Part shown: positions 4,042 to 64,000 of the stretch, one piece after another
How positions within the stretch are numbered: position 1 is the stretch's first letter
Layout of the letters: every line of letters begins with the position of its first letter
Assembly: GCA_905178155.1 (NCBI GenBank)
Contig: CAJINV010000007.1
Span: forward strand, 1,395,341 to 1,459,340
Length of the DNA: 64,000 nucleotides
Reading direction: 5' to 3'
DNA from: Amoebophrya sp. A120
Lineage: Eukaryota > Protista > Dinoflagellata
Notes under the pieces: model-generated
The model's input: the letters and a program-made list of their open reading frames with translations, nothing else
The model's database searches: none
Told to the model about the DNA's origin: nothing
Translations under genes and position numbers: made by a program

Positions 4042-6172
4042 ATGCCGCGCGCTTCTCTCGGGTGCACCCTGGAGAACCGGGAGAGCCACTATGCGGAGTA
4101 TCAAATGTAAAAATGTCTGGGTCTGGAAGATTTTTAGATTTGTCATGCATATTTTCCATGACCCATGATGTCTGTGATGCATACTGTAGCATCACAGATT
4201 TTTAGAGCGATTTGTGATACCTCTACCGCATGAGAAATGCCCTCTACGCGTAGCACGAACTGGAGTCCTCCTGCTGGTCATGCAATACAATTTTTTTCAG
4301 ATGAATCCAGAGACAGCATTACAAGTTTAGAATTTTCCAGACCCAGACACTTTTGCATTTGATACGGAGCCCACGGACCCCATGTGGAACCGGGACGTGC
4401 GCGGGAGCGAGCCCGGCCCGGGGACCTACGATCCCTACCCGCTGCTGAACCCGGCAACACACAGCATGAGATCCGCCAACTATTTCCCGGACCGCGCACT
4501 CCAGTACCCCGGTGGGTCCCTGTACGCGCAGCAACCGATGTGGCTCTCATTGCCGCAAAAGGAGAGAAATCGCTTCTGGATGCAGCACCGAGACCAGCTG
4601 GACGCGCGTAAGTTGAAGAAGCTGGAAAAAGTTTTCGTCGACTGGCGCGACAAGACGTCCGCGCCGTCCAGCTCCCAACAACCCGGCGGGCCGACGTCGC
4701 CAACCGCACGCCATTTCACCTACCAGGCGAACCAGATTTCCACGGAAGTGTTGTCCAACAAGATGCCCGGCGTCGGGAAGCCAATATCCGAGTGCAAAAC
4801 AACTAGTCCTCGGCCTCCTCGTCCCTCTCATTTGTACTTTTACTTCTATGTGCAATGAATAGAGCCCAACCCCAAGAATCCAGCACCAACAGTGAACGCC
4901 CTTTGATGTTGGCATAGTCTGCATGAAAAATTCATTCGGAGGTTGTACTAGCGGCCTACTAGGAACTTTTGTCATGCACACCAGGGTCCTCGTCGTTCAT
5001 GTGGTCTCCTGGTGTTCTTTCTATTGATGTGTAAGTATAGTAAGTATGCCTGCCTTTCAAAAAATGAAGGGGACGACGAGCAGCGGGACGACGAGTTGTG
5101 CACTCTGATAGCCGAGTCAAGTGGAACAAATGTCCAGGACGGTCCCGGCGCGATTTTTCGACTCGGGCATGGGGCCGACAAACTCGAGCTCCTCCTCGAA
5201 GAAGGATATCACACAGAAAAAAACTGGCAGGTCATATTTGGAATGCAAAAATAAATAGACACAAAAAATTTGTATTGCGTAGCCTAAATAGCATGCTATG
5301 AGGCCGCCCATGACAGATCTCCCTTTGTATTTATTTTTGCATTACAAATATGCCCTGCCAGCTTTTTGCTGTGGGATAAAGGACACGAAAAATTTAACCG
5401 GATTGCGCAAGGACGGGGAGTTTGTGCTGACAAAAACCGCCAAGGAGCTGGTGTACACGAACCGTGACTTGCCGATGTCTTCGTTTGCCCGCGTGCCCAA
5501 CAACGTGGGAAACAAACCCTTGCTGAAACGGGTGATCTCCGAACCCTGTTACGAGCAGTACGACACGGCGACCAGCACCTTCTCCTTCGGGGAAAGAAGA
5601 TCACTGCAGCGGAAGTTCAGGTAGATGAAACAGATAAGGAATTGTGGGTGTTTCTTGTGACCTGCAATTTTTTTTGCTTTGCTGGGATCGATACCTGTAA
5701 TGCAACATCATGTCAACTACATGAATCATTGTCATTGTATGATTCTGCTTCTGTACTAGTTCTAGTTGCAATTTCATCTAATTTTGATTCACCTTGGTGG
5801 AGCCATCGAATGAATATTGTGTCAAAGGAAATAAACCCTATCAGGCTCACTCGTGGTCTTTCGAAGATTCAGCGCAAAGTCCTGGAATCCAGGAAATCTG
5901 TCGCGTCGATCGCGAGTCTGGCCCGCGACACGACGAAAAAGCAGAAGCAGGGGAGGACGGAAGAGCCAAGTTGGTACATCCCGCCACTGCCGAAGGAAGA
6001 AGGTCTGGGCGAAATTTTAGCGAACAAATCGCTGAAGAATTACAAGGTGACCGCGCGGGCGCGCGACATCGAGCCGAACGAGCCAAATCAGCAAGACTGC
6101 ATCCCAACGAGGTGGACTGGAATTGGCACGCGGGATTACGACTTGTACAATTTGCTAAACATGACATTGTAG
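4042..6172 (+). CDS. Hypothetical protein of about 375 aa with a PGPGTYDP (SHIPPO/STPG-like) motif. Exons 4042-4098, 4370-4784, 5116-5206, 5384-5620, 5845-6172
   Basis: Removing three inverted-repeat inserts (each with one direct repeat) and one GT-AG intron (5621-5844) gives an uninterrupted 1128-nt frame, MPRASLG...YNLLNMTL. Confidence 0.7.
4099..4364. mobile_element. Introner-like inverted-repeat intron, family A (266 bp, direct repeat CGGAG)
   Basis: Ends TATCAAATGTAAAAATGTCTGGGTCTGGAA and TTCCAGACCCAGACACTTTTGCATTTGATA. CGGAG lies at 4094-4098 and 4365-4369. Removal joins HYAE to PTDPMW in frame. Confidence 0.9.
4785..5110. mobile_element. Introner-like inverted-repeat intron, family D (326 bp, direct repeat GCCAA/GCCGA)
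   Basis: Ends TATCCGAGTGCAAAACAACTAGT and ACGAGTTGTGCACTCTGATA. Removal gives GKPSQVEQM in frame. Confidence 0.75.
5207..5378. mobile_element. Introner-like inverted-repeat intron, family C (172 bp, direct repeat AAGGA)
   Basis: About 50-bp near-perfect inverted repeats, TATCACACAGAAAAAAACTGGCAGGTCATATTTGGAATGCAAAAATAAATA and its complement. Removal gives SSKKDTKN in frame. Confidence 0.9.
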
Positions 6173-8402: not shown

Positions 8403-8888
8403 TAGATACCCCTCAAAAAGTTTTCGACGACTCCAGCACAGAAAGATAAAAAACAAAAAAAGCGTGCAAGCGGTCCTTAACGGCGCTGCCTTCTTTGCAC
8501 TGCACGGAAGGACATGATCCTGCATTCGTGTTCGGAACCTGCGATCGTTGGTAGCTTTATCGAGTCCAGAATGCGTCGCTCGTTTGTCGGTGACTTTTAA
8601 GTAGCAGTGGCACCAAAAGTCAACATCTTCGGTAAACAGCTCGGTACTCAGTCGGTGGTATGCTTGCCAAGAAGCTCTCTGCCGTAGAAGCGAAAGAAGC
8701 GCTTTTAGCCCCCCCAGAAGTATCGAGCTCAAAAATCTGTCGTGTCACTTTCACATTTCAGAGCCAGCCGCCTGACCGATACGGCTTGTGCGCCTGATAA
8801 TTTGGGTGCAAAAACATGCTGACCCTCTTGTAAGTAGAGATCGATGTAAAGTCGATCCCAACTACATTCTTCATTTCCTCCGCACAAA

Positions 8889-11800
8889 ATGTCCTTTGCG
8901 ACCATCTTTTTTGACTTTTCCGGACCGGAGGAAGGGGAGGAGATTCACCGAATCGAGTGGGAGGATGCGTGGGCACCACAAGACGAAAGTGATGCACATT
9001 CAGAATTGCACACCATACAACTTCCGTCCATGAGCATAATACAGCATCAAGTAGACAACAACCGCGCAAGCAGGACGACCAAGAACATGTTGACTTCGGC
9101 ACAGCCACAGGTGGACGTCGTCGCTGCTCCCGAAGTAGTAGTAGATCCTCGTCGCTCTCTAGCAGCCACGACGACCCAAACCGCCCCGATCACCCCGATT
9201 CCCGTCAATTGTCCGGACAACACGTGGACAAAATTTACCTACAACTTGGTCCAGGACGACACGCACCACACCGGCGCTTCTAGCAACTTCGACGTGCAGA
9301 AGGTCGTGGCGGAATCTTGCTACAAGGTGATCCAAACGCAAAACGCGTGGACCAGTCAGATGGGGGCTGGGGTGCAGGGCTGTTTGTTATTGAGAGGAAA
9401 ATCCCCCTTTCCCCATATCGAAGCGGTACATTTCCGAAAATTTGTGTTGCTGATTTGAGACCACAAATCACGGCTTTCTTGCTAGAAGACAAGTGCAGAG
9501 GCCTCCGCGCCATTGTGGAAGCGATTTGGCATGCTGTTGAGCCTAGGGGACTGCCGTTTGTATATGCGAAACAACTAGACCCTAACGCCCCTACCTAGGC
9601 TGAGGATCTGGCTGCGATGCCTCACTGCAAGACAGCGCGCATCTGTGTGCGGAGGTCTAGCACCAGAAACTTCGTCTCGATATGGAGAGGGGAGATTTTT
9701 CCTTACGATGTTTGTACTGCGAGAAACTGTGTGAGGATGAAGGCGGGACGTTAGTCACCATCACGGAGGAAAACCTAGAATTCGTCGCGAAACTTACGGT
9801 ATGGATTGCAAAAGTGTCTGGGTCTGGAAGAGTGCGCGACTTGTCATGCTGCTTTTCCATGACCCATGAGGTCCGGAATGCAAGACCTAGCATGACAGAT
9901 TCTGTGCGATCTCTCTCATGCCAATCCTGCATGAGAAACTCCCTCCCGACTTGGTCAAAACTGGATCTTTTGGTAATCATGCAACAGAGATTTTTGCATG
10001 CTTCAGATTTAGCATGACAAGTTGCATTGTTCTTCCAGACCCAGACATTTTTGCAATCCATATACGGACGACGCGGTGAAGCCTCTGAAGGGGTATAGCG
10101 CAGCAGCCTGCGTCGGCTTGTACCGGGGCTGGTCCTCGTTCAAGCGCGATTGGTTCTGGATCCGGGAGGAACTGACGTATCAGCAGGTGGTCGGCGGGGG
10201 AACAACAACGACTGTCGGTTCTCCAGTTTACAACCTGACGGGCACGGGGTTGCGAGAAAAGGCCAAATGGGTCGACTGGCAGGTGGGGAACCCGCGGGAG
10301 GGAGCCGGGATTCCGCAGGACTGCGGGTTTATGTACTCCGGCCGGATGAAGCGGCCGGGGCGGTTGTACAACGTGCCGTGCAAGCCGTACAAATCGTTTG
10401 GGGAACGGGAGTGTATCTGTCAATCCCCCGGGAGGCCGCACTTGAAGTGGGCACATGACAAGGCGAGACTGGAGGCGACAATGGACATGAGCGACGGAAT
10501 GGACAAATTTTTCTACGACACCGCCACATTCTACTTACCGCTTCCGTTTTGCGGCCTGTTTGGTTTGATGCTTCTACGCGCGCTGTTTGGCTGGTTGTGC
10601 GCCAGCCGGCGGGGAACTACCACGATAGCGGGAGGAGGTTCCGCCGCGAGTACTAAGCAGAAACAGGCTGGAGCGTCTGTTGGTGTTGACCATGCGGGCG
10701 AAAGTCAAAAGGAATCTGGAACAGCGGAAAAAGCAACGCCGGCGAACATCCAAGCGTCCTCTTCGCACGAGCAAGAGCAAGCCTCTGGCTCGCATTACGA
10801 GGCCGTTCAGATTCTGCCGGGGCTACGATTTTTTGCGATCTGGCCGCTGTGTCTCACGGTGCGAAGTATTTGTCATGACAATTATGGCACTGCGAGAAAC
10901 GTCTACAGCAGTACGACGCCAGGGACGAACGCCGGAGTAGACCTGAGCGGCCCCGGAGTCGCGATCGGCGCACCAGACTCCTACAATTACGACGATGCGC
11001 ACCCTCTGACAATAAACACCGCAGAACATCAGCTCTCCGCTTCCCCCGACTCCGGCTGTTGCAACTACGGGAGAACCTGTTTAATTTTCCCTGCTTGGCT
11101 CTGTTCTTCCTACTGTCTCACCGATTTCTCCGTGCGTTTTGTCTGGCGGCTCCTCGTGGCTGTTTACTTCGCACTCCGGGCGTTTTTGTTGGCGGAGGAG
11201 GGTTTCATCGTGCTTGGTGCTTACTATGTGGGCATGGGAGTCGTCAGTCTGGTTGCGCACTACACCTTAGGCCGCGTGCTGGTGGACTCGCCGGATCGGG
11301 TTAGGAAAATTTTGGCTTGCTACTCTACTACTGCTTCGAGCGGTTCAGCTGAACAAGCCCCGTTTATTGGGACTGTGCAGCGCCATCTCCTCCAATCTTG
11401 GCCGGAGCGACTCCGGCAGGCGCAGAGGAGAATGGTGACTCGCAGACTGCTCCCCGTGTTATTGGTCCGCGCAGTGTACTTCTTCATCCAAGAACGGTTT
11501 CGTGGCGGAATCCAGACCTCGGTGTTTTTCTTCGGCGCGCTGCAGCCGTTGTTTTGGCTTCTCGCCGTGCTGTCTCTGACTTCCGACGCGCTTTGCGAGC
11601 AGTTGGAGAGGTTTGTGCTGAAGAGGATCGAGGGGTGCATTCTGGCGAACAACAGCCAATTTAACAGTACAACCGGCGGGACCACCACGTGGACGACGAG
11701 CAAAGAGAGCAAGACGAGCGGGGTGAAGAAAGAAGAATTACAGGCACTTTCAACAACAACAGCATCTTCTGCAGCAAACGACAGTTTTTTGTCGCGTTCA

Positions 11801-12495
11801 TCCTCGCCTCCCCTGCTGCAGGTCTTCGCCGACCACTTCAAAAGACACGGGAAGATGATGGAAGCGACCCGGAAAGTGTTCGGCACCTCCATCGCGGTGT
11901 GCTTCGGGACTCTCACCGTGGGGCTGTTGTGCAACCTCCTCTTCGCGTTGACCGGGTCTCCCTTCTGGATGGCGCAGCTGGTGATTTGGTTTGTGCTCTT
12001 TTTCGTGTTCATGCGGCTCTTGTCGCGACTAGGCGACGCGTACAACACCGCCTTGCAGAAAATTCGGGAGTTACTGCTGTTTGTAACCGCAACGACGACG
12101 ACCGGAAGTACTTATTCCGGTTTTACAACAACCGCTGCAGGTGCACTAGCTTCTTCGAACAACGCAGGCACGACTGCTACCGTGCCAGTCGACTTTTCAC
12201 CCGCTGCTCCTGGTGGAGCGGGAGGAGTTTCCGGCGGCGGTCAACATTTTGTGGGCCCCCAGCAACAGCTTCAGCATTACGCCAATATCGTCCCCCCGAC
12301 AGTCGGCGGGACGATGCGGGCGAATCTGGAACTGATCGTGAAAACCATGGAAGACCGATTGGTGATGAAGCAGCACACGTGGGTGCTGTTGGGCTCCCCG
12401 ATTACTGCGGACGTTTGAAGCAGACTACTGCGTTCTTAGTAGCGAGCTGCTTACTCACCTTCGCACCGATGTTTCTACAGAATACGCAAGGATAG
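8889..12495 (+). CDS. C-type lectin domain plus about 8-TM membrane protein (about 977-1000 aa). Exons 8889-9387, 9716-9799, 10068-12418, or to 12495 if a 1-nt frameshift is corrected
   Basis: After removing two inserts the sequence reads CPDNTW...SCY...CEKLCEDEGGTLVTI...VGLY...WFW...WQVGNP...QDCGFM...NVPC...CICQ, the C-type lectin pattern. Many hydrophobic helices follow. Confidence 0.8.
9388..9710. mobile_element. Introner-like inverted-repeat intron, family B (323 bp, direct repeat TTTGT)
   Basis: Ends TATTGAGAGGAAAATCCCCCTTTCCCCATATCGA and TCGATATGGAGAGGGGAGATTTTTCCTTACGATG. Removal gives QGCLYCEKLC in frame. Confidence 0.85.
9800..10062. mobile_element. Introner-like inverted-repeat intron, family A (263 bp, direct repeat TACGG)
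   Basis: Ends TATGGATTGCAAAAGTGTCTGGGTCTGGAAGA and TCTTCCAGACCCAGACATTTTTGCAATCCATA. Removal gives AKLTDDAVK in frame. Confidence 0.92.
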
Positions 12496-13551
12496 GACCA
12501 CGTTGAGAGAACTGAAAGCAGTTCGGCCTTTTGTTGAAAATATTTCCGGAATCGAACAGAAGCGATAGTGTCGCTTTATTTCCCTATTCAATTTTCTATC
12601 AAGTGCTCAAACAGACTTTGAGAACAGTTGTACTACCATTGGAGTATCTACTTCAACGAGGTGGTAAGTATCGACGCTGATCTTGACCATGTTCCCTTGA
12701 AACGCGAACCTGGAATAAATCGGAGTGGCGTCTTGAACGTTCCTTGCCACCCCTCGAGAGAAAAATGTCGGATATGATGCAAAGATTTCGGTTCGGTATT
12801 TCTGATTGCAGCTAATATCACTGTGAGATAATCTACCTGATGAAAAACGTGCTCTTTCATCCATCGAAAAAGTACTCCGACTGAATTACATTTTGTATAT
12901 TCACCCAACGGAACAATCGGAATAAAGTCGGAAAAAATCTATCGCTCGTCATCTTGAACCCAAATCAGCTCTCATTTTCCGAGACCACAAACCTCAATCT
13001 GAAAGATCTAGATCCCATGGTAATTTTCGGCCTTTAGTTGTAGCATTTCAAACTGGACGTAAGATTCAAGTTTGCAAATGGGTGCATTTTGGTTACTTCG
13101 AAAAAAGCTTGAAGTGGCCTCAGGAGGCAACGAGCAAGGTTTTTGTCGAGGTGAAAGAACAACTGAACTAAGTTTTTAGTAGTTTCACTTCGTCGAGCTC
13201 GAGCTACCTCCTTCAAAATCAAACTTGGCTAGTTTTTGCTGCCTCTTTTTCACTACGCTACATTCGTTTACGTTTATGTTGCCTTATGTAAACAACTTAC
13301 TGAAAGAGAAAGAATTGCAATGTGCTCGCTGTATCTGCTAGACTTTCTTTGACACGACCACGAAGCGTGAAGATCAACACTGCTTGAAATTCGAAGCTGT
13401 TACTACACAACGAGTTTCCGCAAGTGCAGTTGGATCCTAGCAATCAAAAACCAATTCGCGCTGCTGACCTAAGAATCTAAGCCCTAAACCCGAAAGAACC
13501 GTCGGCAAACGCGGCAACCAACCCTAAACCGTAACCGTACTATTTTACACA

Positions 13552-16500
13552 ATGCCGCCGCCCAACGCAACCAAAGGGGGCGGGAAAAGCCCCACAGGAG
13601 TCGGAGGGCAGGAGCCAAGCTCTGGCACACCTACAACTTCTACCACCTCCGCTCCCATCGTGGGTGGTATGGCGTGCCGTTTCCCCCAGTCCCGGACGAC
13701 TGCAGAATTCTGGGAGAACTTGATCACGGGAAAAAACATGATTACCCAGGACGACGAGCACTGGGAATCGGGTTTCCACAACCAATTACCCCTGGGAAAA
13801 GGATCGGTCCAGAAACAGGAGTACTTTGACACGTTCTTTTTCAACATGAGCGGCGCGCAGGCCGAAAAAACCGATCCGCAGCTACGGTTTCTGTTGGAGC
13901 TGTCGTATGAAGCACTCTGTGATTCCAACCTGGACATCCAGAAACTGAAAGGGAGCAACTGCGGGGTGTTTGTCGGTACCGTAAAGTGTTTATTCGGTTG
14001 GTTCTTGCATCTCTTGGTCTTGCCTGAGCAGGCCCTTCAATGGTTGAGTTCAAGTTCTGACGGTTCAACATGCATCAAATCCACCGCATAAAGACCGAGT
14101 GAACTCCATGCGCGAGATACTTAAAATTAAAATCCGCCATCAATTATTATGAATCAGGTTCCTGTTTTTCCGATTGCCACAAGGCTTGGCTGCACGACGT
14201 CCCGGCCATCACCGGTTACGAGAATACGGGCTGCGCGCAGTCCATGTACGCGAACCGGCTTTCGTTCTTCTACGATTTCCACGGACCTTCCTTCAACGTC
14301 GACACGGCTTGCTCCTCTTCCCTCGTGGCCTTCTCCCAAGCGTGCCGAGCTTTGGAGGCAGGCGAGTGCGACGTGTGTCTGGTGGGAGGAAGCTCCATCA
14401 CCCTCCACGCGGGCGTCTCCGTGGCGTTCAACCGGTTGCACATGTTGAGTCCGGACTCCGCGTGCATGAGTTTCTCGAAGAACGGGAACGGGTACGCGAG
14501 AAGCGAGGGCGTCGCGATGTTGGTGCTCTACCGGGAGGACAAGGTCGGGCAGTATTGTCGGAATCCGCTCTGCAAAAACCCGACGCCCAACAGTTACTTC
14601 AAGGTCCTCGGGTTCGGGATAAACAGTGACGGGTTCACGAAGAAGGGGATCACCTTCCCGAATGGCGAAGCCCAGTACGACCTGTACAGACAGGTGTGCA
14701 AACAGGCGAACGTGGACCCGTCAGAAATTTTTTACATCGAAGCGCACGGAACCGGGACCGCGGCGGGGGACGGACAGGAGCTGGAGGCGCTGAGAAGGGC
14801 GTACTTGGAACCAAGGAAAAAAATAAATTCTGCGGAAAATAGTAACAAAAAAGCGAACCTCGATAGTTGTACAACTAGCACATCAACAAGCGTACAGCAG
14901 CCACTCCTGCTCGGGTCTGTGAAATCCAACATGGGCCACGCGGAGGGCGCGAGTGCCATGGCGGGTTTGATCAAGCTCTGTCTGTCCTGGTCCCAGAAAC
15001 AGATCCCGGCGAACTTACACTACACCTACGAGGACCGGAATAAGGGGTGTGAGCAGATGCTGGGCGATTTGACGAAGTGCCAAGTGGTCGAGAAGAACTA
15101 CCCGATTGAGGAGCCAAACGAGAAAAAAGTCGCAATTTCTTCCTTCGGGTTTGGAGGCACCAACGCGCACGCAGTGCTGTCGGGTCAGGTAAACGCGGAC
15201 AACATGACCTCAGAGGACTCGAAGATGAACAAAGTGACCAACCGGGCGCTGTCTGAGAAGATTTGTGAGGAGGAGAAGTGGCGGCTGATTACGCCGATTT
15301 ACGGCAGGACTGCGGACGGGGTGCACGCGGCGTTGGAGGCTTTGCAGGAGAAAAACATCGCGTTTGACCACTTGGTCGGGCCACCGAGCGTCCACGACCA
15401 CTTGAAAGAATTTCCCGCGATGGGGTACAAGACGCTAGGGGGTGATATCGTCACTTCCGACGAGCCGCAGCCGTACGTGGTCGGTCGTGCGGAGAGTGGT
15501 GAAGAATCTTCACCACTACAGGAGGAGCAAAAGAACGACCAAAAGCGCCGTCCCCTCTGGCTGCTCTTTTCCGGCAACGGCGGCATGTGGCCGTTGATGG
15601 GGAAGGACTTGTACGAAAACAGTAAAATCTACCGCGAAACCTTCGACAAGTGCTGCGAGCATTTGCACAAAGAGCACAACTACGACAAATTGAAGCAGTT
15701 TCTGACCGAACCGGACGTGACGAAGTACACAGCGGTGGAAGGGGTTTGCGGTTTGGCGGCCGTGCAGATCTCGCTCATCGAGGTGTTGCGGCGAGCGGGG
15801 CTGCAGTGGGACGGCATGTTCGGGCATTCCGCTGGGGAGACCGCGATGGGGTATGCGGACGGGTGCTTGACGCTGGAGGAGACCATGTCGGTTGCGTACT
15901 ACCGGTCCCTCTGCGGTGCGGATTCGGTGGACAAGGAAAACCCGGGGGGGATGTACGCCTGCGGGGTTTCCCGCGAGAAGATGGAAGAGCTGCTGCAAGC
16001 GTACCACTGCACGCGGCTCACGCAGGTGGGCTGCGACAACGACCCCTCGATGGTGACGCTGAGCGGGTCGGAACGGGAGATGAAGCCGATTACCGTGGAA
16101 CTGACCGCGAAAAAAATCCTCTGCCGGAAGGTCCCCACCTTCGGCGTCGCGTTCCACTCCGCCATGCTGGAACCGGGACTCGCGAAGTTGAAAGAGCAGC
16201 TGGAGAAAGTTATTGACAACGCACCGGGGAAACCGAAAGAGCAGCGCCGGCGATCTTCCAAGTGGGTTTCCACGTGCTACGACGACGATGTGATCCGGAA
16301 AGACCCGAATCACCCCGGGAACTTCGTGTCCGCCGAGTACCACTACTACAACTTCCGCAACACGGTAGAATTTTACCGGGCGGTGAAATCCCGAGTGCCG
16401 GCCAACGCGGTGGTGGTGGAGGTGGGACCGAGCGGCTTGTTCCGGTCCTCGATCAAAAAGATCGCGGCCGTGGAGAAGCGGCCGATGCACTACTTTTCGC

Positions 16501-19500
16501 TGATGTCGCGGGACAAAAATTCGCTCCACACCTTCCAAAACGCGTTTGGCCAGCTGATGTTCCAGGGTTTGGTGAAGGAATTGACCGTGGACTTCGCAAA
16601 GCCGGAAAAGCAGTTGTTGCCGAAGGACATTCCCGTGATCGCGTCCGATTTGAAACTGAAGCAGGTGTTCACGATGTGGGACCACGGGACGATCTACCCG
16701 ATCCCCGGGATTTCCGATATGGTCAACAAAACCGGCGCGGTCGGGGAGCAGGAGATGGGAAATTTGTCCGGGGAGGACTGGAAAAACATCCACATCGTGG
16801 AGTTTGATTTCTCGACGGAGCGAGACAGTTTCATCATGGACCACGTGATCGACAACACGGTCTTGATGCCGGCGTGCGGCTACATCTTCGCGGCCTGGGA
16901 GTCGTTTGCGAACGTGTTGAGGAAGAGAGGTTTAATCCAGGAACTGAACGAGGCCCGGGACGTGAAACTGGTGGACTTCAAGATCCACCAGGGCATCAGG
17001 CTCGACGAGTCGAACGTCCAGATGAAGCTGACCGTGCGGTTCTCGCCGGCAAGTGGAGACGGTGCCGCGAATGTGAACGGGGAGGAGTATAAAATCTTCT
17101 ACGGGGAGGAACACATTGTGACTGGAAGGATCAAGTTGGAGAAAAGTACGACTTCTGGTGGTCCGGCCGCTGCTCCACCAAACACGACTGTCGTCGCACC
17201 GCTCGGAGGTAGTCCAAACGAAAACATGAATAACGTGCCAGACTCTGACACGTTCGGGCACGCCCTGGGCGCGGTCACTGCGAACGAGTTTTACTGCCGG
17301 ATTGCGCGGAACGGCTACAATTACGAAAACGCCTTCCAACTGGTCGAGAACGTCGGGATTGACGACAGTTGGGCGTGGGTCAGGTTCGACCACGCAGTGG
17401 AATTGGTGCAGTCCGCGGTGCAAGCCGCTACGGCCGATGTCGCGAAGGACCAGACGGGGGCGAGCAATGTCGCGGAGAAGGGGCAGTTGGGGGACAGCAG
17501 TTCCAAGCAGAAGTTGGAGCTGCAGGACGACATCGTTTTCAACCGCTACTGGATCTCGTTTCTGGACAACTTGCTGCAGGTGTCTCTGCTGAAAAACCTG
17601 AACGATTCCGCGACACTGCGAGTGCCGACGTCCATCCGCGAAATCTGCATCCGCGGATCGCAATTTGGGAATTTCCTGCGGAAAATGCGGGAAGGGACGG
17701 TGGGGATGCGGCACATCGAGTCGACGGATTCGGTGCAGTCCCGGGCGTCCTCCTTGGAGAACAAGGAGCCGGGGGTCATGATGGACAAGGAGCGGAAACT
17801 GTTTCTCGTCGAAGCCCAAGCGCAGTCCGGGACGCAGTTGGTGAAAATTTTGCCCTACATGAACCAAGTGGCCAGTGACATCGCGGACGTCACGGGGTTA
17901 GCGACCTCGATTATGGCCCGATCGACCAAAGCGAAGGAGAAACGGGTACTGCACGTGGCGCGGAAAAAGATCTTCGACTTGAAAAACGCGGTCAACGTGC
18001 GGAAGGACGCGGTACTTTTTAGAAAACATAAACATCTCTTAGTACATGAATGTGCTTTGGCATAAGACACCGACTATGCAGTATCTTGCAGTATCTACTT
18101 ACTTTTTCGTCGTTTATTTTTGCATGACAAGTTCTCTGTTGACATTCTCCAAAAACCACACCATCGAAACAGACCGCCATTTCTCTCCTTCTCTCCTACC
18201 TGAAAGAGCAATTTGTCTCTGGAAACTTCACCGTTGTCGACTTTCTCCCGGTGTCCATGCAGGAGCTGACGCAGAAGGTGATGGAGACTTCCAATGTGGA
18301 AAAGTTTTCCGTATGAAATGCAAATATGTCTGGGTCTGGAAAGTTGTGATGCTGGGTGGCGTATCATGAGGTGGCCAGCACAAGTGCTGGCTCAGCATGA
18401 CAAGTTTCTGAGCTTCTAGGTGCTGCCTATTCTGCATGACAAACTGCGTGTCTGCATGACAGAAAAGTGGGGCTCTTGGGTAATGTGCATGACAAATTTA
18501 AGAGTCATGTCCATGTGAGACAAGCATGACAAACTCGCACTATTCCAGACCCAGACATTTTTGCAGTTGATATTCTGTTCTGTTCGACAAAACTCTCGAC
18601 GAAACGAAGAAGCAGGAGTACCAGCAGAAATCCGACGGGGTGTGTGAAGAAGTGAAAGAGAACGAAAAATTCGATGTCGCTCTAGTCCACGACGAGAGTG
18701 TCTTACCGGAGCAGATAACGAAGGTGGACTCGCTGCTTGCGACGGAAGAATCGAAAGCGGAGGAGTTTCAACCCCCGTTCGTGATCGTGAAGTCTGACAC
18801 AACTGGGAAGATGTTGCAGGGCCAACTACCGGTCGCGAACTTGTTCTCCAAAGTGATTCGTGTGAACGCGTTGGAAACCGGGAATGAATTCATATTGTAC
18901 AAAAAGACACCGGCGAAGCCAGCACTGAGTGCAAGAACTTCTGGCACTTCGAACAATCATGCAGAACTACAGGGCACCAGCAATGCCTCTGCCACGGCAC
19001 ATCAACTGAACCCCGCGTTGCTCCAGTCGCAAGTGCTGCAATTTTCCGGCTACGACGGGTTGGAAGTGAGCAAAGAGCAAGTAAAAGAATATGAGCAACT
19101 TTTCCTTCGGTTGTCTGACGACTGCTTCACGAAGGACAACATCAGGAAACTCGCACAGTTTCTTCAGGAGGTGAACGACAGCGAGAAGTACCCCAAACTG
19201 CAGAAACTGTTTCTACTCGCCGGCGCAAACGGCTTCCCGGGCTTTCTCCGTTGCGTGCAGAAGGAGCCGAGTTTTTCGAAGATCCGCGGAGTCCACTTGG
19301 TTTCAAACTCATCTGCGAATATATCTGTCGGGTACAGTAACGAAGCCTCCGAGCGGATTGCGAATGCTCTCCCCCAAATCTCTCAACTCGACGCCAGACT
19401 GATCCGGTTGGACGTGAAAACCAAGCAGCTCTCGGTCGAGCTTTCCTTTTACGAGGAGGAGCAGCCGAAATACCCGGCCCCGTTTGGGGAGTTCCTCACC

Positions 19501-22500
19501 TTCCCGCAGCCGGGGAACCTAGAGGCGTTCGCCTGGAAGGCGCACCCGCACTTTTCCGTGTTGTCGCTCGGGGACGAGGTGGAGAACCCGAGGGAATTTG
19601 GGACCATGCTGCTGCCGCAGATTGTGACGAAAAATTCGTCCGGCGTCGGGACGACAAGCTTACTATTGGACGAAACGGAAGCGAGTCTACCGCCGAACGG
19701 AACAGGAGCAAATACTGGCACAACTTTGCTGCAAATTGAAGTCGCGGCGGATAAATATACGTGCTTATCCTCCAGAGCAGCGGAAACGTTGCCGCAGAAA
19801 TCCACCAGCAAGGGAACCACTACGAGCGAAAACGAACGGTCGACCTCCGGATTGTTCTCCAACCTCTTCGGCGGAGGGAGTAGCAACAACCTCCAGGCAC
19901 TGAAAAAGGACAACGGCACCCCGGGAGGGAATAAAGTCGCAGGTAGTACTATCGCGAAAAACTACTCCCCCAGTTCCGACGGAAAGATACAACAAGATGG
20001 GGACTTTCTCTCGGACACGGACGCGAATCTTTTCACAGAGGCAGCGCTCTCCCGGAAGTTGCAAACGGAATATTTGAAGCAGGTGACGGCGAACGCGACG
20101 AAGGATCTGCAGCAGTTCAACCGGCTGAACAACACGAACGGGAATAATAAGACCGGCACTTCTAGCAAGAAAAGACAACTCCGGTCCGTCGACGTTTCCT
20201 TCGCTGCCTTGAACTTCCGGGATATCATGCTAGCGTATAACAAAATCGACAAAGACGCGATCGTCGGCCATAGTAAGATGGGCGACGGGTTCGGTTTGGA
20301 GTTCGCGGGGTACTACACCCCCTCCGATTCGTTATCCGGCTTCGCCGAACAGGCGTACCACGGCTCCGACATGTTTTCCGGACACCATCATCACCTCAGT
20401 GGGAATGAAAATGAAAACAAAATCAAGGTGATCGGCTTGACCTACAACAGTATCGCAAGAAAAAACTGTTTCATTGTAAACTTGTGATGCAGAAAATGCA
20501 TCTGAGAAGTGTTTGTCTTGCTACACATGCAAGACAATAGCTGTGTTTTCCCTAGGGAATCTCGCATGGCAAATTTTCTCTGTGATGTAGAGCAAACTTG
20601 TGACGCAGATCTTGCAAAATCATCACAATGAAACAGTTTTTTCCTGTGATAAACAGTCTCGCGACGAAGGTCACCGTTCCGGCGAACTTGTTGTGGGAGT
20701 TGAAACCCAATCAGGAGTTGCGGCATTATGCCACCGTGCCCTGCGTGTACGCAACCTGCTACTACAGCTTGCTGGTTCGGGGGCAATTCACGCCGGAAAC
20801 TTCGGTCTTGATCCACGCGGGCGCGGGCGGGGTGGGGCAGGCAGCGCTGTACATCTGCTTAAAGAGGACCAGTGACCCGAGTCTTATCTTCACAACCTGC
20901 AGCACGAAGAAGCGGCAGTATTTGCTGGAGAAGTTCGGGCATTTGGGGTTGCAGGAGAAGAACATCGGGAACACGAGGGACACAAGCTTCGAGCAACTTG
21001 TGATGAAGAACACCAATGGCCGCGGGGTGGACATCTGTCTGAACAGCTTGTCCGACGAGAAACTGATGGCGAGTGTCCGGTGCGTGGCGGCGTTCGGTCG
21101 GTTCTGCGAGATCGGGAAGTACGATTTGATGCAGAACACCGGGCTGGGGATGCATTGTCTGTTGAAGAACGTGTCGATTATGGGGATCGATCTGGACCAG
21201 ATCCTGAACCAGCCGAGAGAGTGGGCGACCGTGCACAGGTTGGTGCAGGAAGGGATTCTGTCTGGCGAGGTCGAACCCTTAGACGTCGGTGGGTGTTTCT
21301 CGATGCGGCAAATCACCGAAGCGTTCCGGTTCATGGGCGCGGGGACGCACGTCGGCAAGGTTCTGTTGCAGTTTGACAATACTAGCACGAAGGGAGATGA
21401 TGTTGGCTCCGGCTCCGCCTCCACCACTGCGGGCGACATGACCAGCCGGTCCGAGTCTAGAGAATCAGACGCGGCGGGAACTATAATGGCAAACAAAGCT
21501 GCGGCGGGAACTATGGGCTTCAACCCACCAGGACGAACGAATATTGCAGGCGCATCAAATAGTACTTCTTCTACCGTTGAGCAGTCCCCAGCTTCTTCAT
21601 TATCCAACAACGGCGGAAAATGGTCGGTATTAACCGACGCCCACAGCGAGCATCTAGTCGCGGACACGCCGAACTTCACTCCGAAGAATCCGAACCGGGA
21701 CGGGTATTTGATTATCGGGGGTCTCGGTGGGTTCGGGTTGGAGTTAGCGGAGTTTCTGGCGATGAAGGGCGTGAAGCACATCGTTCTCTCGTCCCGCGGC
21801 ACCATCCGGAACGGGCTGCAGGCGAAGTATTTGACGAAAATCTGCAAGGTGTACGGGTGTCACATTTCCGTCACGAACGTGAATTTCGCAGACAAGGCGA
21901 AATGCGAAAAGTTCCTGAACCAGAATAAGCACATCGCGGGGTTTTTCAACCTCGGAATGGTGTTGGCGGACGGGCTGTTTCACAAGATGGAGGGCAACCA
22001 GTGGGCGACGCCGATCTTGGCGAAGGGGATCATCACGGAGAATTTTTCCGAAGTCGCACAGAAACTGAATCTCGAGTTCGACCACTTTGTGTGTTTCAGT
22101 TCGGTTTCCGCCGGGCTCGGGAACGCGGGGCAGACGAACTACGGGTTTGCGAACGCCGAGCTCGACCATTTGATCCGAATGCGGAACCAAAACGGGTTGT
22201 CCGGGTTGTCGTTGCAATGGGGCGCGATCGGGGACGTGGGGGTGTTGTCCCGGGCGAATTCGAAGAAAACCGGGCTGGTAGACGCGGTTCTGCCACAGGA
22301 AATCCAATCCTGTCTGCAGGAACTGGAGAAGCTTCTCGCGAGCAACAGTACCGGGGTCCACACGGTCTACTTGACGCCCAAACGGGTGAAGGACGACTCG
22401 ACTTCGAACGATAGCTCGGTCCCGTTGGAGCAGAAAGTACGGGAGATCGTGGGGGCAAAAGCAACCGTGAAAGACACCGCGACCTTGGAAATGTTGGGTG

Positions 22501-22619
22501 CGGATTCGCTGCAGTCGATGGAGATCCAGTCTCTGATCAAAATGCGGACCGGAGAGAAAATCGCCATGGACAAACTCAGCAAGATGACGCTGAAGCAAAT
22601 CCGGGAGTTGGAAGGGTAA
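13552..22619 (+). CDS. Single-module type I fatty acid synthase/PKS (KS-AT-DH-ER-KR-ACP, about 2720 aa), animal-FASN-like. Exons 13552-13975, 14158-18011, 18263-18311, 18578-20450, 20657-22619
   Basis: KS motifs DTACSSS, EAHGTGT, KSNMGHAE and FGFGGTNAH. AT motifs GHSAGE and AFHS. DH motifs DHVIDNTVLMP and DNLLQ. ER motifs LNFRD and LIHAGAGGVGQAA. KR motifs GGLGGFG, GQTNYGFAN and QWGAIGDVG. ACP motif LGADSL. The joined exons total 8163 nt in frame. Confidence 0.93.
18312..18572. mobile_element. Introner-like inverted-repeat intron, family A (261 bp, direct repeat TTCCG/TTCTG)
   Basis: Ends TATGAAATGCAAATATGTCTGGGTCTGGAA and TTCCAGACCCAGACATTTTTGCAGTTGATA. Removal gives EKFSVLFDK in frame. Confidence 0.88.
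20451..20651. mobile_element. Introner-like inverted-repeat intron, family C-like (201 bp, direct repeat AACAG)
   Basis: Ends TATCGCAAGAAAAAACTGTTTCATTGT and ACAATGAAACAGTTTTTTCCTGTGATA. Removal gives TYNSLATK in frame inside the ER domain. Confidence 0.9.
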
Positions 22620-52000: not shown

Positions 52001-55000
52001 GCAGGTGGTTATACTACTAGCAATGGTTCTGCTTCTTCTGTAGCGGCCGGCTTGAGTAGTGCGAAGCGGTTAACGAATTTTTCGGCGTTGGCGCCGGCGG
52101 TTGGAGCGGGAATCCCTGGGGGGAGAGGAAGTGGTGTTGGTGCTGTTCCAGAGTACCGAAGAAGATCAGGGTGTTTTGACCCCTAGTAAAGATACGTTTT
52201 TGGCTTTGACTTTAGCTTCTAAATGCGCTGAACTAATCCGGCCTTCTGCCTTCTGCGTAGTGATAGTGAAGGAGTCGGAGAACTATTTCCGGAACGTGTT
52301 TTGTTCACAAGCTGTTTTGTTCCACACTTGTTTCATCTGTTCGTTTATCGATCCGGCAAGAGCAATGGAGAGAAGTACCAAAAGAAGTGGAATCTCAAAG
52401 CGGTTGAGCTACCGCCGCATGCAAAACGACGTCGCAAAAGTTCAATTAGGTTTCCTGGTTTTATTCGATGAAGCCGCATTGTTTTGCTGGGTGTTTTCTT
52501 GTGTGTCTGATGTGCCACAGTGCCGTGAGAGATCCTCCTTCCTTTGTGGAAAGAGAAACAGTGTGGTGAACTTACTACAGCCAAATCGTTCCGAAATGGG
52601 ATCTTTTCCTTAGCCACTGTAGTTGCTCGTCCGCTTCTCCATTCTAGTTGAAACCACATGCGACCGCGATAAAAGACCCTCGTCTTCACACCGGGCCGTG
52701 TCATTGACGTCGTTGACTTTTTTAGCCACTTGATTGAAGTTACTCCCGTGCATCTCAGAAGCCAAGTGGAGCGGATCATGCCCACCTCTCTCCCACCACC
52801 GGAACAAGAACGCTCGGCCGAGCTCCCCACGCTTTTGCGAGGGACGCACGACGGCTCGCAGCATGGCCACAGCAGTTCCAAAACAACCAAAACTGGCGCA
52901 ACAATCCATCCGACAACCTCTGCCGGCGTGTTTGGCAAAAACCAGTTGCTACCACCCTCGGTGGACGCCACGACTCCTCACCCCATCACCGAGGAGCCCG
53001 TCGTGCCACCAGCTGCCTTGCGTTTGCCCATCCGGCACATGGTTGTAAGCACACCGGAAAAAATCGCGCGCGAGTTCTTCATGCAGCCCACGCCAGACAT
53101 CGGCGACCTGGTCCTGGACGTCGAACAGGAGGTGTTAGAAGAGGAGGAGCTGCGACTGGAGCATGAAAGGTAAGTCGATTTTTTTCAAAAGCGATTTCAT
53201 TGTTCTTGTTGCAAGGAAGGTCTTGTCATGTGTCCTCTCGCCGCAAGGAATGGAATAGAACCGCATGGCAAAAAAGTAATTAATCAAACAACAGAACCTC
53301 TCGCTCTCCTACCGTTTTCGCCTGTCCTGAGCGGCAGAACATCTCCAGTACCGAGCAGTCGCCGGACCGGAAACTGTCTTCTGACCGGACCCTTGCCGCT
53401 GCCGGCGGCTTCACTCCGACTCTGCTACAGGACTGGAATACAACGGATAACGAGAATAAAGATACGACTGAGAAAAACAAAAAGAAGCAGCAAGAACAAC
53501 TCCCCCGCTCAAGCTCCCTGAAGAAGAAGACAAATAAATTTGGCACAGTCATTTCTACTCCCGGCGCAACTATCAGCAAGACACATTCCACCGGGCAGCA
53601 GCACCAAAACATGAAAGTTAGCCAGCCGATCCAGAAGCGGGTTTCCTTTTCCGAGGAACTGTTTCTGCAGTCGATCCAGTATCTGCCTACGCCTGTCGAC
53701 GGCGAAGAGGACGGCGAGCGGGTGGATAGTACTTCTGAAAAAATCTTCACAATCGGGGAGATGAACATTAAGGCCCACAGTCGTGCAGTCAGGAAGGAAG
53801 ACCAGACGACATCGTCTTTCGGAGAAGCGGAACAACAGGAACGACAGTCCAACAAATCGATCCGCTCCCTCTCCCCCTCCATCAGCCCCAAGGTTCGGCG
53901 TGGCCGCGGCTACGCGCACGGGCGGAACTCGAGTTTGATCGGCGATATGGGGGAGGATCCCATGGTGGAGGAGGACGACGAAGACCTGTTTCTGGACCAG
54001 TTAGGTGCAGCAGCAGCAGCAGCAGCGCACGAACAACCACGCTCCGAACAATTGGATCGTGATCTTCCGCATGTAGTTGACAAAGAACTCGTCCAGGATC
54101 AAGAAACTTCCTTTTCCGCTGTCCCGACCCAGAATCTGTACGAACCGCTGGATCAAGTAGAGGATGTGACTTCCTCTGGTGCCTGTTCGCTGTACTCGCA
54201 AGAGCAGCGGTCTTTAGACGATGCTACGATCTGCGCTGCGGTGGACACGCTGTTGCCGATTTCGACCGCCTATCCACTGTAAATATGTCTGGGTCCTCTG
54301 GAAACTTGTGATGCGCGTGCGGCACTCGTGAGGACTTTCAATTGACGGCCAACAAGCATGAGAAGTTTTTGAGCTCCCACTAACTTTGGAGCTGTCGTCT
54401 ATTCTACATGGCAAACTGCGTCGACAACAAAGTGGGGCGTTTGCGTAACGTGCATGAGAGGAGAATTAAGGTTTATGCTAATCAAGCATGACAAACTCTT
54501 CCGAACGCAGACATATTTGCGATGCATACCACCGCCTTGCAGTCCTCCGCCACTATGGACCTGGAAGAAGAATGGCGGATCGACGCGGCGTTGCGAAAGT
54601 TGGCGAGAATGCAAAAGCAAAAACGGCCTTCGGAGGTGGATGACGCGGTGCTGATTGAAAGTGACGACCTGCTCTCCAATTCTTCCTCCAGCGGTGGCGG
54701 TAACTTCTATGCCACAAGCGACAGTTCGTCGGACGACTTTGGTTTCGACGGCGTCAATGTTGATCATGCGGGAAAAAAGAAGTTTTCGAAACTGGGAAAG
54801 ATCCGTTCCGGTGCGGAAACCTCGAAAATGGTGAACAGCACGGCGAAGGTGGTAGAGGGGTTGATGTTGAGTGGTCTCAACAACAGCATTCCCACTCTAG
54901 ATTTGGAGAACACAGCAGGCGAACCACAACAGCTGCAATTTGAACGGCATCTTCTTGATGACGAGGGACCTTTTTTATCGAACACAGGATCTTCTCTCTC

Positions 55001-61103: not shown

Positions 61104-64000
61104 ATGATCAAGTCCGTGTCGCATGGCAAGGCCTCGAACAAGGCCGTGGAAGACCAAGACCAGCAGCGGGTGTACGATTTGCACCGCAAGAAAATTACCA
61201 ACGTGAAGTCCCGCATTTGCTCGAACTGGTCCGAACGGGAAGTGCAGAAGCTGCAGCCTTCCCTCCGGAACGCAAAGCGAGACCAGCTGCAGTCCGAGAA
61301 GCACTCGCAGATTGAGCGGGAAAATTTCAGGCTTTTGCAACGGTATAATAAGTAGTGTGTGATGAACAAGGGTGTGAATGTGTCGCGTGAAGTAGGTGCT
61401 CAATAAAATAACTCTTTGTTGTTGTTCATGATTCTGCATCGCTATCGCACACAGCTGTTTTTTCGTCGCTCGTAGTAGTTGTAAAAATCTGTTGTACATC
61501 AATCACGAAGCCATCGATGAAAACAAAAAACGAAAACACGCACGAAGGTTTATGGAAATTGATGGTGCCAAGCCCAAAACCACACGCGCTCCGAAGACGC
61601 ACTCGATGCCAGCCGCGAGGAGAGCGGAACTGGAACGGATAGAACGGGAGAACCAGGGGTTACTGAAACGGATCACGACGCAAAAATCGACGATTAACAC
61701 GAAAAAGATGGAATCAGAGCACGAGAACCAACAGCGAATCATGCGTTTGCGGTGTGTGGAGGCCGGGCGCTACAGAGGTCCAAACGCTGTCGGGGTGCCG
61801 GGGGCGAGGGGAGTTCCGGGTAGTTGATTTTTTTTTGCAGGAGGACTCTTATGCGAAAAGTACGTTCTCGTTTTCCTTTTCTTTTCGCAAATCTCAATTA
61901 GTTCTACGACCATAGTCAATGACACTTGTTCTAATGAAAAACTACATTTTGCTCTCGCCCATTTTTGATCTCCGCTACCTCCACGCTACCATGACCAGGT
62001 TCCGCGAGCAATCATGCCACCGCCCCGGGCCGGAAAAATCAAATGAAAATTGACGCGGACGCACATGAACTGGATAGTGATTACGAGGATGATTTCGAAC
62101 AGGAGGAGAATTACGACGAGCTCGATGCTGACGAAATGCAAAAGGTCCGCATTGACCAGCCGATTGACCGCCTGATCAATCGCGGCCGACTGTTTGAAGA
62201 AGCCGAAGATAATGAGGACGAAGATGATGAAACAGTAGATGTTGATGAAGCTGCTGCTCGTCCTGGTGTGAAACCAAATGAAGACCAAGACGGCCATGAT
62301 CAACAACATCTTCTTGAGCCGCACAGCACCGAAACGTCTGCACAGCACGATGTGAGTATGCAAGACGAGGAAATTCAATCAAATGTGGAGCAAGAAGATC
62401 ACCCAACGGACGTCGAAACCCTAACCGGAAGCACAACCACTCGTCCGGAGCTGCACAATATCAAAAGGAAAAATCCCCCCTCCCCATACCGAAAACGTGT
62501 CCGTCTGAAAATTTGCGATGCGCATTTGTGACCTCAAATCCTGTCTGTCTTGCAAGAAGGCAAGTCCAAAAAGCGTTCCGCATTTTTCAGGCGGTTTGTG
62601 ATGCTGTTTGGCTCAGAGCGTGCACGTTTGTCATGCTAGGCGCCTACGTCAAAACCGCTCGGCTGAGGCTTGGCATATGCCTGGAGTCCTCTACTGCAAG
62701 ACAAATCTGATTTGTGTATGGAAACCCAGCATCAGAAACTTCGTTTCGATATGGGGAGGGGGCATTTTTCCTCATGATACACAACGGCGCGGAATTCGTT
62801 CCCTCGGCCGGTAGTTCTAGTAAAAAAACCACACCTGCTGCAGGTCGTGGCGATAAAGCCGCGGGAACCAACATAATTGCCGCGATCGGCACGACGAGAA
62901 CTACGAGAGCCGGCGATGGGGGCGAGAAGAACAGTAGTACTCCTGCAGCTCCTTACGAAGACAATGACAACACTTTAAACGAAAATTACCCCGAAGATCA
63001 ACAACAAAACGAAAACTCCTGCTCCGAACAAGCCCGTTCCCGAAGTTATTCGACGACCGAAAATCTTCACAATAGCAGCTCTAGTACTACTGCAGCAGGA
63101 CCACCAGCAGTAGCCCAACTGTCCGCGAAACAGGAAAACAAGCGGCAGAGGTTTGAACTGGACAGAGCGCTGGCCCAGTTAGAAGAAGAGTTCGGCGATA
63201 GCATGGCGTCCAAGGTGAAAAACTTGAACAAACTACTGCCCGGATTGAATGGTGGTAATAGTAACAATGCTGACCATCGAATGTTGTCCGGAATTGCACC
63301 AGGTGGTCACAATAGATCAGGCCCCTCGTCGCGGACGGTAAGTAAGCAACGCCGCAACAGCCTGCCAAAAGCGCCAAGCAGCTACAGCTCCGCTGTAGAT
63401 AGGCGGGCGGCGGGGGTGTATAACACCAGCACCAACAAGTCCTCGGCGGGGGTTGCCACCGGGAATAAACTACAGGGTAGAAATCATGATCATAAGTACT
63501 AAATGTAAATGTGGATGTGATGGAATAAATAAAATCGAGATCATGCTTCGTGCTTGTGCGTTATTGGCACGACTTTCGACTTGATGTTCTCGACGAAGAT
63601 TCTTGCTTTCGCAACATGATGCTAGAAGAGATTTAATGTTCTGTTGCCTCGAATAAGAAAGAGTAAGAACCTCAATTCTTGTTTACTCCACAGCAACGCC
63701 ATCATCCGGTCTCCCCCCGCCGGCGAAGCAAGCACCGAAGCCGGACCAACATCCCCCCGCGGCCAAACCAGAAGTGACCACGGTTTTCGTTCCTGCCGGG
63801 TTCGGGCGGAGCGCGCAGTTGGTGAAGCAGAAGAAAACGGAGGCGACGTACGGCTACACGAAGCGGGCCCCTGTGAAGCCGGCGGAGGAAATTTTGAAGG
63901 AAGCCATTCTGATGGAGGAGAAGCGGAAGAGGGTCGGGAGTTTTGACACCAACGATTTGTCGCAAATCAAAACCGCGGCGAACCAGCACTACCAGGCGAC
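61104..64000 (+). CDS. CFAP97/KIAA1430 (Hemingway)-domain protein, multi-exon, running past the window end
   Basis: HRKKI..VKSRI...KRDQLQSEKHSQIERENFRLLQRF...RRAELERIERENQGLLKRI shows the doubled IEREN..LL pattern of this domain. It has three GT-AG introns and one inverted-repeat insert. Confidence 0.75.
62459..62779. mobile_element. Introner-like inverted-repeat intron, family B (321 bp, direct repeat CACAA)
   Basis: Ends TATCAAAAGGAAAAATCCCCCCTCCCCATACCGAAAACG and CGTTTCGATATGGGGAGGGGGCATTTTTCCTCATGATA. Removal gives ELHNGAEF in frame. The inverted repeat matches the insert at 9388. Confidence 0.9.

Follow-up and report, generated by a model that had tools for sequence, protein, structure and literature searches.

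A predicted C-type lectin-like domain fused to a predicted gustatory receptor-type channel domain in Amoebophrya sp. A120

A stretch of 64,000 nucleotides from the dinoflagellate Amoebophrya sp. A120, which parasitizes marine algae (assembly GCA_905178155.1, contig CAJINV010000007.1, positions 1,395,341 to 1,459,340 of the forward strand), hereafter the window, whose own numbering is used throughout, carries at 8889-12495 a gene in which a lectin-like part is followed by a membrane part. The two parts belong to one spliced gene, and the fusion is real. The membrane part is predicted to adopt the fold of the seven-transmembrane ion channels (7TMICs), the family of the gustatory (GR) and odorant (OR) receptors of insects. 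In the window, the frame is broken by a TGA codon immediately before the predicted pore helix, TM7b (TM, transmembrane helix), while a homologous protein, P0004, is whole. We consider it somewhat more probable than the contrary that the gene represents a 7TM ion-channel receptor of the insect gustatory kind bearing a lectin-like domain on an extra helix, of which the window holds what is likely a recently broken allele.

Gene structure and transcript

On the + strand, an open reading frame (ORF) begins at ATG 8889, directly downstream of an in-frame stop, and is followed by a short middle frame and by a frame of 801 codons that terminates at 12418. Excision of two introners, inserted elements that are removed from the transcript, yields a single frame of 977 amino acids, identical to the public protein P0003, whose source is named as Amoebophrya sp. 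A120. The gene is composed of the following parts.

8774-12622, + strand: extent of the spliced transcript, a single mRNA, as covered by a contig of run X1 (likely RNA)
8889-9380, + strand: coding exon 1, acidic, Thr/Pro-rich N-terminus and start of the lectin-like domain
9381-9708, + strand: introner 1 (328 nt), with non-canonical ends, a 7-nt direct repeat and an imperfect inverted repeat; a related copy lies at 62470-62778
9709-9794, + strand: coding exon 2 (86 nt), encoding the lectin-like domain's helix-1 region
9795-10062, + strand: introner 2 (268 nt), with non-canonical ends, a 5-nt direct repeat and a 32-nt inverted repeat at its termini; related copies lie at 4098-4357 and at 18311-18573
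10063-12418, + strand: coding exon 3 as far as the premature TGA

One contig of 3,253 nt from sequencing run X1 covers 8774-12622 with no mismatches, no other letters and no gaps. It spans the lectin-like and the membrane parts, which are therefore in one transcript; the two separate genes that an earlier note on this DNA had named as grounds for rejecting the fusion were not found. The contigs of runs X1 and X4 omit exactly both introners, whereas those of the DNA-like run X5 retain them. Contigs of runs X2 and X3 terminate at 12614 and 12569, respectively, and depth is zero at 12625-12927. Runs X1-X3 give good coverage of the spliced mRNA. Runs X1-X4 were taken to be RNA by guess, which is supported by the skipped introns and by contig ends that fall at the gene ends; the raw-read runs X7 and X8 gave introner-like reads or none and provided no test of the locus. 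The 5' leader has two upstream ATGs at 8816-8849, one opening a 5-codon frame and the other an ATG-stop in frame with the gene, which could damp translation.

The position of the two introners within the lectin-like domain, as proposed in the earlier note, is borne out by the exact skips in the X1 and X4 contigs. Neither can be excised at GT-AG ends. Both are bordered by direct repeats, carry inverted repeats (32 nt and 97% complementary in introner 2), are repeated in the genome and are spliced out. Further copies or arms of both families lie in the window at the positions listed above and at 54485-54530, and the arms of introner 2 are highly repeated in run X5. The 5' arms of introners 1 and 2, read on the sequence, fit the A120 signature TAT-N7-AAA given in passages of PMC7789003. 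In their direct and inverted repeats and non-canonical ends they do not differ from the Amoebophrya introner elements described there (Farhat 2021), and they are ordinary for the A120 genome. P0004 is continuous across both intron sites, as may be expected if the introners were gained in the A120 lineage or if the P0004 sequence is transcript-derived.

The lectin-like domain

9210-10423, + strand: CTLD (C-type lectin-like domain), residues 108-313, from Atlas structure search and alignment; ten Cys; NPR and LYN in place of EPN/QPD and WND

An Atlas structure search with residues 100-345 of P0003, for which the Atlas model has a mean predicted local distance difference test (pLDDT) of 0.50, returned lectin-type clusters in eight of eight rows, two of which reach the bar for naming. 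Atlas feature scores of 0.87-0.89 for this region are leads only. Ten Cys residues are found within residues 108-312, and all nine that could be aligned are conserved in P0004. The pairs Cys172/Cys312 and Cys280/Cys299 are at the expected disulfide places and are conserved, and CVGL occupies the position of the WIGL segment. The attributes by which a CTLD is recognized, namely the fold, two or more conserved disulfides and a core of the WIGL type, are thus present, without a Pfam match. On these grounds, residues ~108-313 can with high probability be assigned a C-type lectin-like fold.

In sugar-binding members, EPN or QPD plus WND form the calcium site II sugar-binding motif, as set out in parts of PMC7618208. 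We placed these positions by eye from neighbouring Trp, Pro and Cys residues in the P0003/P0004 alignment. The EPN/QPD position is NPR in both proteins, and the WND position is LYN in P0003 and MYN in P0004, so that neither protein has the motifs of a calcium-dependent carbohydrate recognition domain. Since both motifs are replaced, classical calcium-bound sugar binding is not likely, and the domain may instead bind a protein, or a glycan independently of calcium. The complete C-type lectin of the earlier note therefore stands as a fold but not in its calcium-sugar motifs, and the suggested glycan sensing is weakened.

The membrane domain

10532-10600, + strand: extra membrane helix, residues 350-372, from hydropathy, followed by four basic and no acidic residues in both homologues
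10811-10858, + strand: short hydrophobic segment that, judged from its position, is likely TM0, the re-entrant loop of 7TMICs; 57% identical to P0004
11132-11632, + strand: predicted TM1-TM4 (11132-11191, 11204-11272, 11447-11491 and 11516-11632)
11825-12046, + strand: predicted long TM5 and TM6 (anchor domain), the best conserved in-frame block (62%)
12326-12415, + strand: predicted TM7a and the loop preceding TM7b

A hydropathy scan found nine segments scoring at least 1.2. The lectin-like domain is followed by the hydrophobic helix 350-372, a low-complexity linker and further helices, in the order first described, except that the last helix, after WVLLGSPIT, is out of frame. The motifs claimed for the last helices are present at 11825-11884, 12023-12046 (SRLGDAYN) and 12380-12406 (WVLLGSPIT).

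The fold was compared with solved structures using a model of residues 436-830 of P0004. Foldseek ranked BmGr9 and Gr43a first (E 0.17 and 0.27), with TM-scores to GRs of 0.37-0.45. When 691 of these Foldseek chains were re-aligned to the model, the top 17 rows were all GR, OR or Orco, with Z from 13.6 to 10.7, and the next row had a Z of 8.1. An independent wide search of 48,161 solved chains also placed GRs and ORs in the top eight, with Z of 14.2-9.4 over 283-316 aligned residues and root mean square deviations (RMSD) of 5.0-6.0 Å; the best row had a Z of 14.2 over 308 residues at 5.0 Å. The next unrelated chain was Hrd1, with a Z of 8.8 over 171 residues. Chains of G-protein-coupled receptors (GPCRs) and transporters had Z values of at most 7.6 over at most 135 residues, compared with ~300 for the GRs, although a low rank does not exclude a family. 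The match to a GPCR or transporter fold that would have spoken against the earlier assignment was thus not obtained. With a full-length AlphaFold model of P0004, Foldseek placed GRs at ranks 19-27, behind ABC exporters. The window's own membrane domain gave, in an Atlas feature search, 7tm_7 at rank 6 (0.94) and DUF3537 at rank 17 (0.93), which is a lead only.

The P0004 model can be described by the six listed 7TMIC features (taken from portions of bioRxiv 10.1101/2023.08.30.555482 and PMC9998090), which its helix pattern matches. TM7 is split into helix 336-361, a coil and helix 372-394 (model numbering). The anchor helices TM4-TM6 are 52, 46 and 48 residues long. The outer loops TM1-2, TM3-4 and TM5-6 consist of 2-4 residues, and the inner loops are long. 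A conserved hydrophobic segment, residues 443-458 of P0003, lies at the place of TM0 and is not confidently modelled. A four-copy complex prediction for residues 585-830 of P0004 scored 0.01 against a mark of 0.32, far below the level for a verdict. With GRs and ORs on top in three structure comparisons of P0004 and the Atlas lead on the window's own domain, the 7TMIC assignment of the earlier note is supported, and we regard a 7TMIC fold as very probable for this modelled domain. The product of the window's copy is a truncated member of the family at most.

The frame break before TM7b

12416-12418, + strand: premature TGA, one-base frame shift relative to P0004, same letters in runs X1-X6
12415-12495, + strand: TM7b, the predicted pore helix, out of frame; it shares 16 of 21 residues with the P0004 C-terminus

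P0003 terminates three residues past GSPIT, and P0004 extends 21 residues further. A tblastn search with the P0004 tail found a match in the window at 12385-12477, in another frame (E 3e-5). The tail scored 84, compared with 28 for the best other of 127,870 six-frame window positions, and none of 200,000 shuffles reached 84. An identity of 16/21 is attained by just 39 of 725 in-frame windows (median 9). By codon usage the out-of-frame tail is the best of the three frames, but the score is weak (-0.04, compared with 0.11 for the gene body, over 20 codons) and was not used. The earlier note lists the last TM along with the others; the ORF stops at 12416-12418, and the end given there, 12495, is that of the out-of-frame helix, so the frameshift had been crossed unremarked.

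All six runs X1-X6 carry the window's letters at the stop, with no gap or joint. An assembly slip is therefore unlikely, with the proviso that the window itself may derive from runs X5 and X6; contigs also drop rare variants, so that minor edited forms are possible. A 6-nt direct repeat, with copies 23 nt apart, flanks the stop (12404-12432). Removal of a 23-nt micro-intron between the copies at 12404 and 12427 would restore the frame, and no such spliced joint is seen in the contigs. In-frame readthrough of the TGA would meet the next stops within 8 codons and gain no helix. A stimulatory hairpin downstream of the stop was also sought and rejected (RNA fold z -0.43). The simplest reading of the letters is that the TGA arose by the recent loss of one base. 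The product of the window's copy, lacking TM7b, is likely pore-less; in GRs, TM7b is both the pore lining and the gate, according to passages of PMC12635824.

Relatives

Searched with the membrane domain, 1.84 billion representatives yielded three proteins: P0003 itself, P0004 (830 amino acids, E 1.5e-70) and P0005, a 141-amino acid fragment from JGI/IMG (E 5e-4). P0004 has the same order of parts as P0003 and is 45% identical to it overall, with identities of 53% in the lectin-like region, 47-62% in the membrane blocks and 22-35% in the linkers. From the shared order of parts, the fusion exists in at least two divergent genomes. P0004 starts ~140 residues later than P0003, and its gene call may therefore be cut short at the 5' end. 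Word-based searches found no homologue among 7,993 candidates of 235-751 amino acids and none among 7,997 short proteins; at 456-1,453 amino acids, two of 7,995 candidates matched and no new relative was added. Two scans of JGI metagenomes gave no relatives among 115 and 64 pattern matches, respectively. P0005 matches TM5-TM6 only (31% over 93 residues), and may mark a wider, undescribed branch of 7TMICs.

Topology and proposed function

In both homologues, the extra helix is followed by four basic and no acidic residues. The residues before it comprise one basic and five acidic in P0003, and three basic and one acidic in P0004. Because of this positive-inside bias after the helix and of the conserved cysteines, we favour an arrangement in which the linker is cytosolic and the lectin-like domain is outside (N-out), and judge it probable. 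By the charge bias, the 7TMIC part would begin on the inner side and the true N-terminus would lie on the outer side, which would depart from the intracellular N-terminus of 7TMICs.

In the whole protein, the extra helix would cross the membrane N-out and leave a disulfide-bonded lectin-like domain outside or in the lumen, while the 7TMIC part would, as is usual, start in the cytosol. A tetramer would make up a cation channel with TM7b lining the pore, and its four lectin-like heads would sit next to the outer mouth. These heads might bind a surface ligand, for which a protein or a calcium-independent glycan is likelier than a classical calcium-bound sugar; the bound ligand would be held near the channel's own pocket, or the heads would pull the channel open. 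On this model, contact sensing would be the likely function of the whole protein; that it plays a role in host contact is guessed from the parasite's way of life. In the A120 strain, the subunit without TM7b would make no pore, and the mRNA is still made and spliced. It is a doubtful, though not far-fetched, further step to a syndinian 7TMIC gated via an outer lectin-like domain. It would be the first such channel to have gained an extracellular module for ligand binding, and would turn host-surface contact directly into an ion current. That both should hold, outer-lectin gating and a stop that through recoding switches between conducting subunits and pore-less ones, is improbable in the extreme.

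Alternative explanations

The single mRNA, the removal of two introners, the stop, the out-of-frame helix and the layout of P0004 are observed, and both folds are predicted. Several results weigh against the reading that we prefer. The fold test was run on P0004, not on the window's truncated protein, from a three-sequence alignment, and the model of residues 436-830 is of low confidence (pLDDT 51, predicted template modelling score 0.41). It has no Foldseek match at E≤0.001 and deviates by 5.0-6.0 Å from the GR and OR chains; Z values below ~13 can be ordinary for helical bundles, and the best row alone is clearly above this. The full-length model (pLDDT 41.5) has the lectin unfolded and no clear match. 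In the Atlas feature search, the top three clusters have no family and the recognition value, 1835, is below the bar of 2300. Two Pfam searches, of 4 and 3 proteins, gave neither 7tm_7 nor Lectin_C at E≤10; PDB searched by sequence gave no match for the lectin half and, with an alignment, three chance matches, none convincing. The TM-scores of the lectin-like region are only 0.45-0.55. Both P0004 and the out-of-frame tail agree with the TM7 motif (T/S)Yhhhhh(Q/K/E)(F/L/M) at two of its four positions (S, M); most Vitrella GR-like proteins (GRLs) likewise have two (passages of PMC7746228). P0004 is the only full-length relative found. That the membrane domain is not a 7TMIC, and that a weakly modelled generic helical bundle accounts for the matches, is suggested by the pLDDT of 51, the best Foldseek E of 0.17 and the lack of a profile match. 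Yet all full-length matches are GRs or ORs in three comparisons, a 7TMIC is also indicated by the language-model search with the sequence of the window's protein, and the helix pattern fits the six listed features, and this explanation seems very unlikely. The lack of a clear signal peptide, already remarked upon, stands: none is evident in P0003, a stop precedes ATG 8889 in frame and the transcript contig has no further upstream exon. Without one, export of a 350-residue N-terminal domain is hard to explain. The domain could instead be a cytosolic protein-interaction module, with the extra helix and TM0 both crossing the membrane, or neither. This would suit the missing signal peptide, the missing calcium-sugar motifs and the MORN, WD40 and long PHTF N-termini of other 7TMICs, which are defined as intracellular in portions of PMC9998090. 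However, the ten cysteines, nine of nine aligned being conserved, are consistent with disulfide bonds, the basic cluster that follows the extra helix would need to lie outside, and TM0 is a re-entrant loop in Orco (PMC7746228, in part). A cytosolic domain is accordingly quite unlikely in our estimate.

For the stop itself, a broken allele sits uneasily with a well-covered and correctly spliced transcript. Ribosomal frameshifting at the stop might give some product with TM7b, so that the gene would yield both pore-less and whole subunits. The out-of-frame TM7b is among the best conserved parts, the stop sits precisely at its start, the spliced mRNA has good coverage in X1-X3, and stop-triggered +1/+2 shifts are reported in Euplotes (passages of PMC10235951). 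A recent mutation, however, predicts equal conservation of TM7b; moreover, no stimulatory RNA fold lies downstream of the stop, no classic slippery heptamer was seen by eye, and the 'frameshift' passages of the A120 genome paper (PMC7789003) concern Perkinsus mitochondria. The P0004 frame is open and needs no shift, and this is the one such site examined. Frameshifting is about as improbable as a cytosolic lectin-like domain. Slightly less so, though still unlikely, is a short protein that functions as it is, either as a pore-less adhesion or sensing protein or as a regulatory subunit that joins 7TMICs via the intact anchor domain (TM4-6 and TM7a). Its whole lectin-like and anchor domains are in frame and conserved, and expression persists. 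Against this, the abandoned TM7b is undecayed (16/21), so that its loss is recent on the scale of 45% divergence, and no second 7TMIC of A120 was found as a partner, in homologue searches that would miss distant paralogues. We therefore retain a recently broken allele of a lectin-bearing 7TMIC as the preferred reading.

Neighbouring features

A type I polyketide or fatty-acid synthase gene with KS, AT, DH, ER, KR and ACP domains lies at 13554-22619, and a likely-RNA contig of 9.18 kb starts at 12967. Two CCCTAAA telomere-like words, found by eye at 13480-13515 just upstream of the synthase start, may be due to chance.

Significance and comparison with known systems

7TMICs with weak TM7 motifs are known in alveolates, as passages of Benton 2020 (PMC7746228) and Himmel 2023 (bioRxiv 10.1101/2023.08.30.555482) describe; the main texts of both do not mention Amoebophrya. 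According to the same passages, the 2020 screen kept proteins of ~350-500 amino acids with an intracellular N-terminus, and the 2023 screen also sought an intracellular N-terminus. An N-out protein of 830-977 amino acids would therefore likely be filtered out by both. The lectin-7TMIC architecture looks undescribed: we found no account of such a fusion, and 'lectin' is absent from the main texts of bioRxiv 10.1101/2023.08.30.555482 and PMC9998090, while supplementary hit lists, searched in part (12 of the 53 files of PMC9998090), could hold this protein. In the portions of the 7TMIC literature covered, no ligand or job is named for any protist 7TMIC, and our literature search found no account of how Amoebophrya spores recognise algal hosts. 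The lectin-like domain could be made alone, screened for ligands and then tested on the channel. Since the public A120 model encodes a protein without the pore helix, the whole relative P0004 is preferable for such tests. If the proposal is true, the 7TMIC family can acquire an outer receptor module, a design that screens for an intracellular N-terminus miss.

The insect receptors BmGr9, DmGr43a, DmGr64a and Orco share with P0004 the predicted fold over ~300 residues, with long TM4-6, split TM7 and short outer loops. Identity to these receptors is 7-12%. In contrast to them, there is a lectin-like domain with an extra helix ahead of the channel part, the TM7 motif matches at two of four positions, and TM7b is missing from the window's copy. 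Small sugars are bound by GRs in a pocket within the bundle of helices, not via an added domain (passages of PMC12635824). Other members are the protist GRLs of Vitrella, Thecamonas and Symbiodinium and the plant DUF3537 proteins, whose clusters are Atlas neighbours of the window's domain. Trypanosome GRL1 with MORN repeats, GrlHz with WD40 and PHTF likewise have a separate domain ahead of the 7TMIC core (PMC9998090, in part). Their additions are at an intracellular N-terminus, whereas the extra helix of the A120 protein likely puts its domain outside.

The lectin-like domain itself resembles the group V-type C-type lectin-like receptors dectin-1, CLEC-2 and NKG2D, which have the same CTLD fold and conserved disulfides without EPN/QPD or WND, as described in parts of PMC7618208. 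The A120 domain differs from these in being joined to a predicted channel, and in a protist. Dectin-1, CLEC-2 and NKG2D are single-pass receptors that signal via adaptors. Adhesion GPCRs with lectin domains (latrophilin/CIRL) offer a functional analogy, an outer lectin-type domain on a 7TM sensor. Latrophilins have a signal peptide, a GAIN domain and a different lectin fold; their 7TM fold also differs, and no GPCR is among the top matches for the P0004 model.

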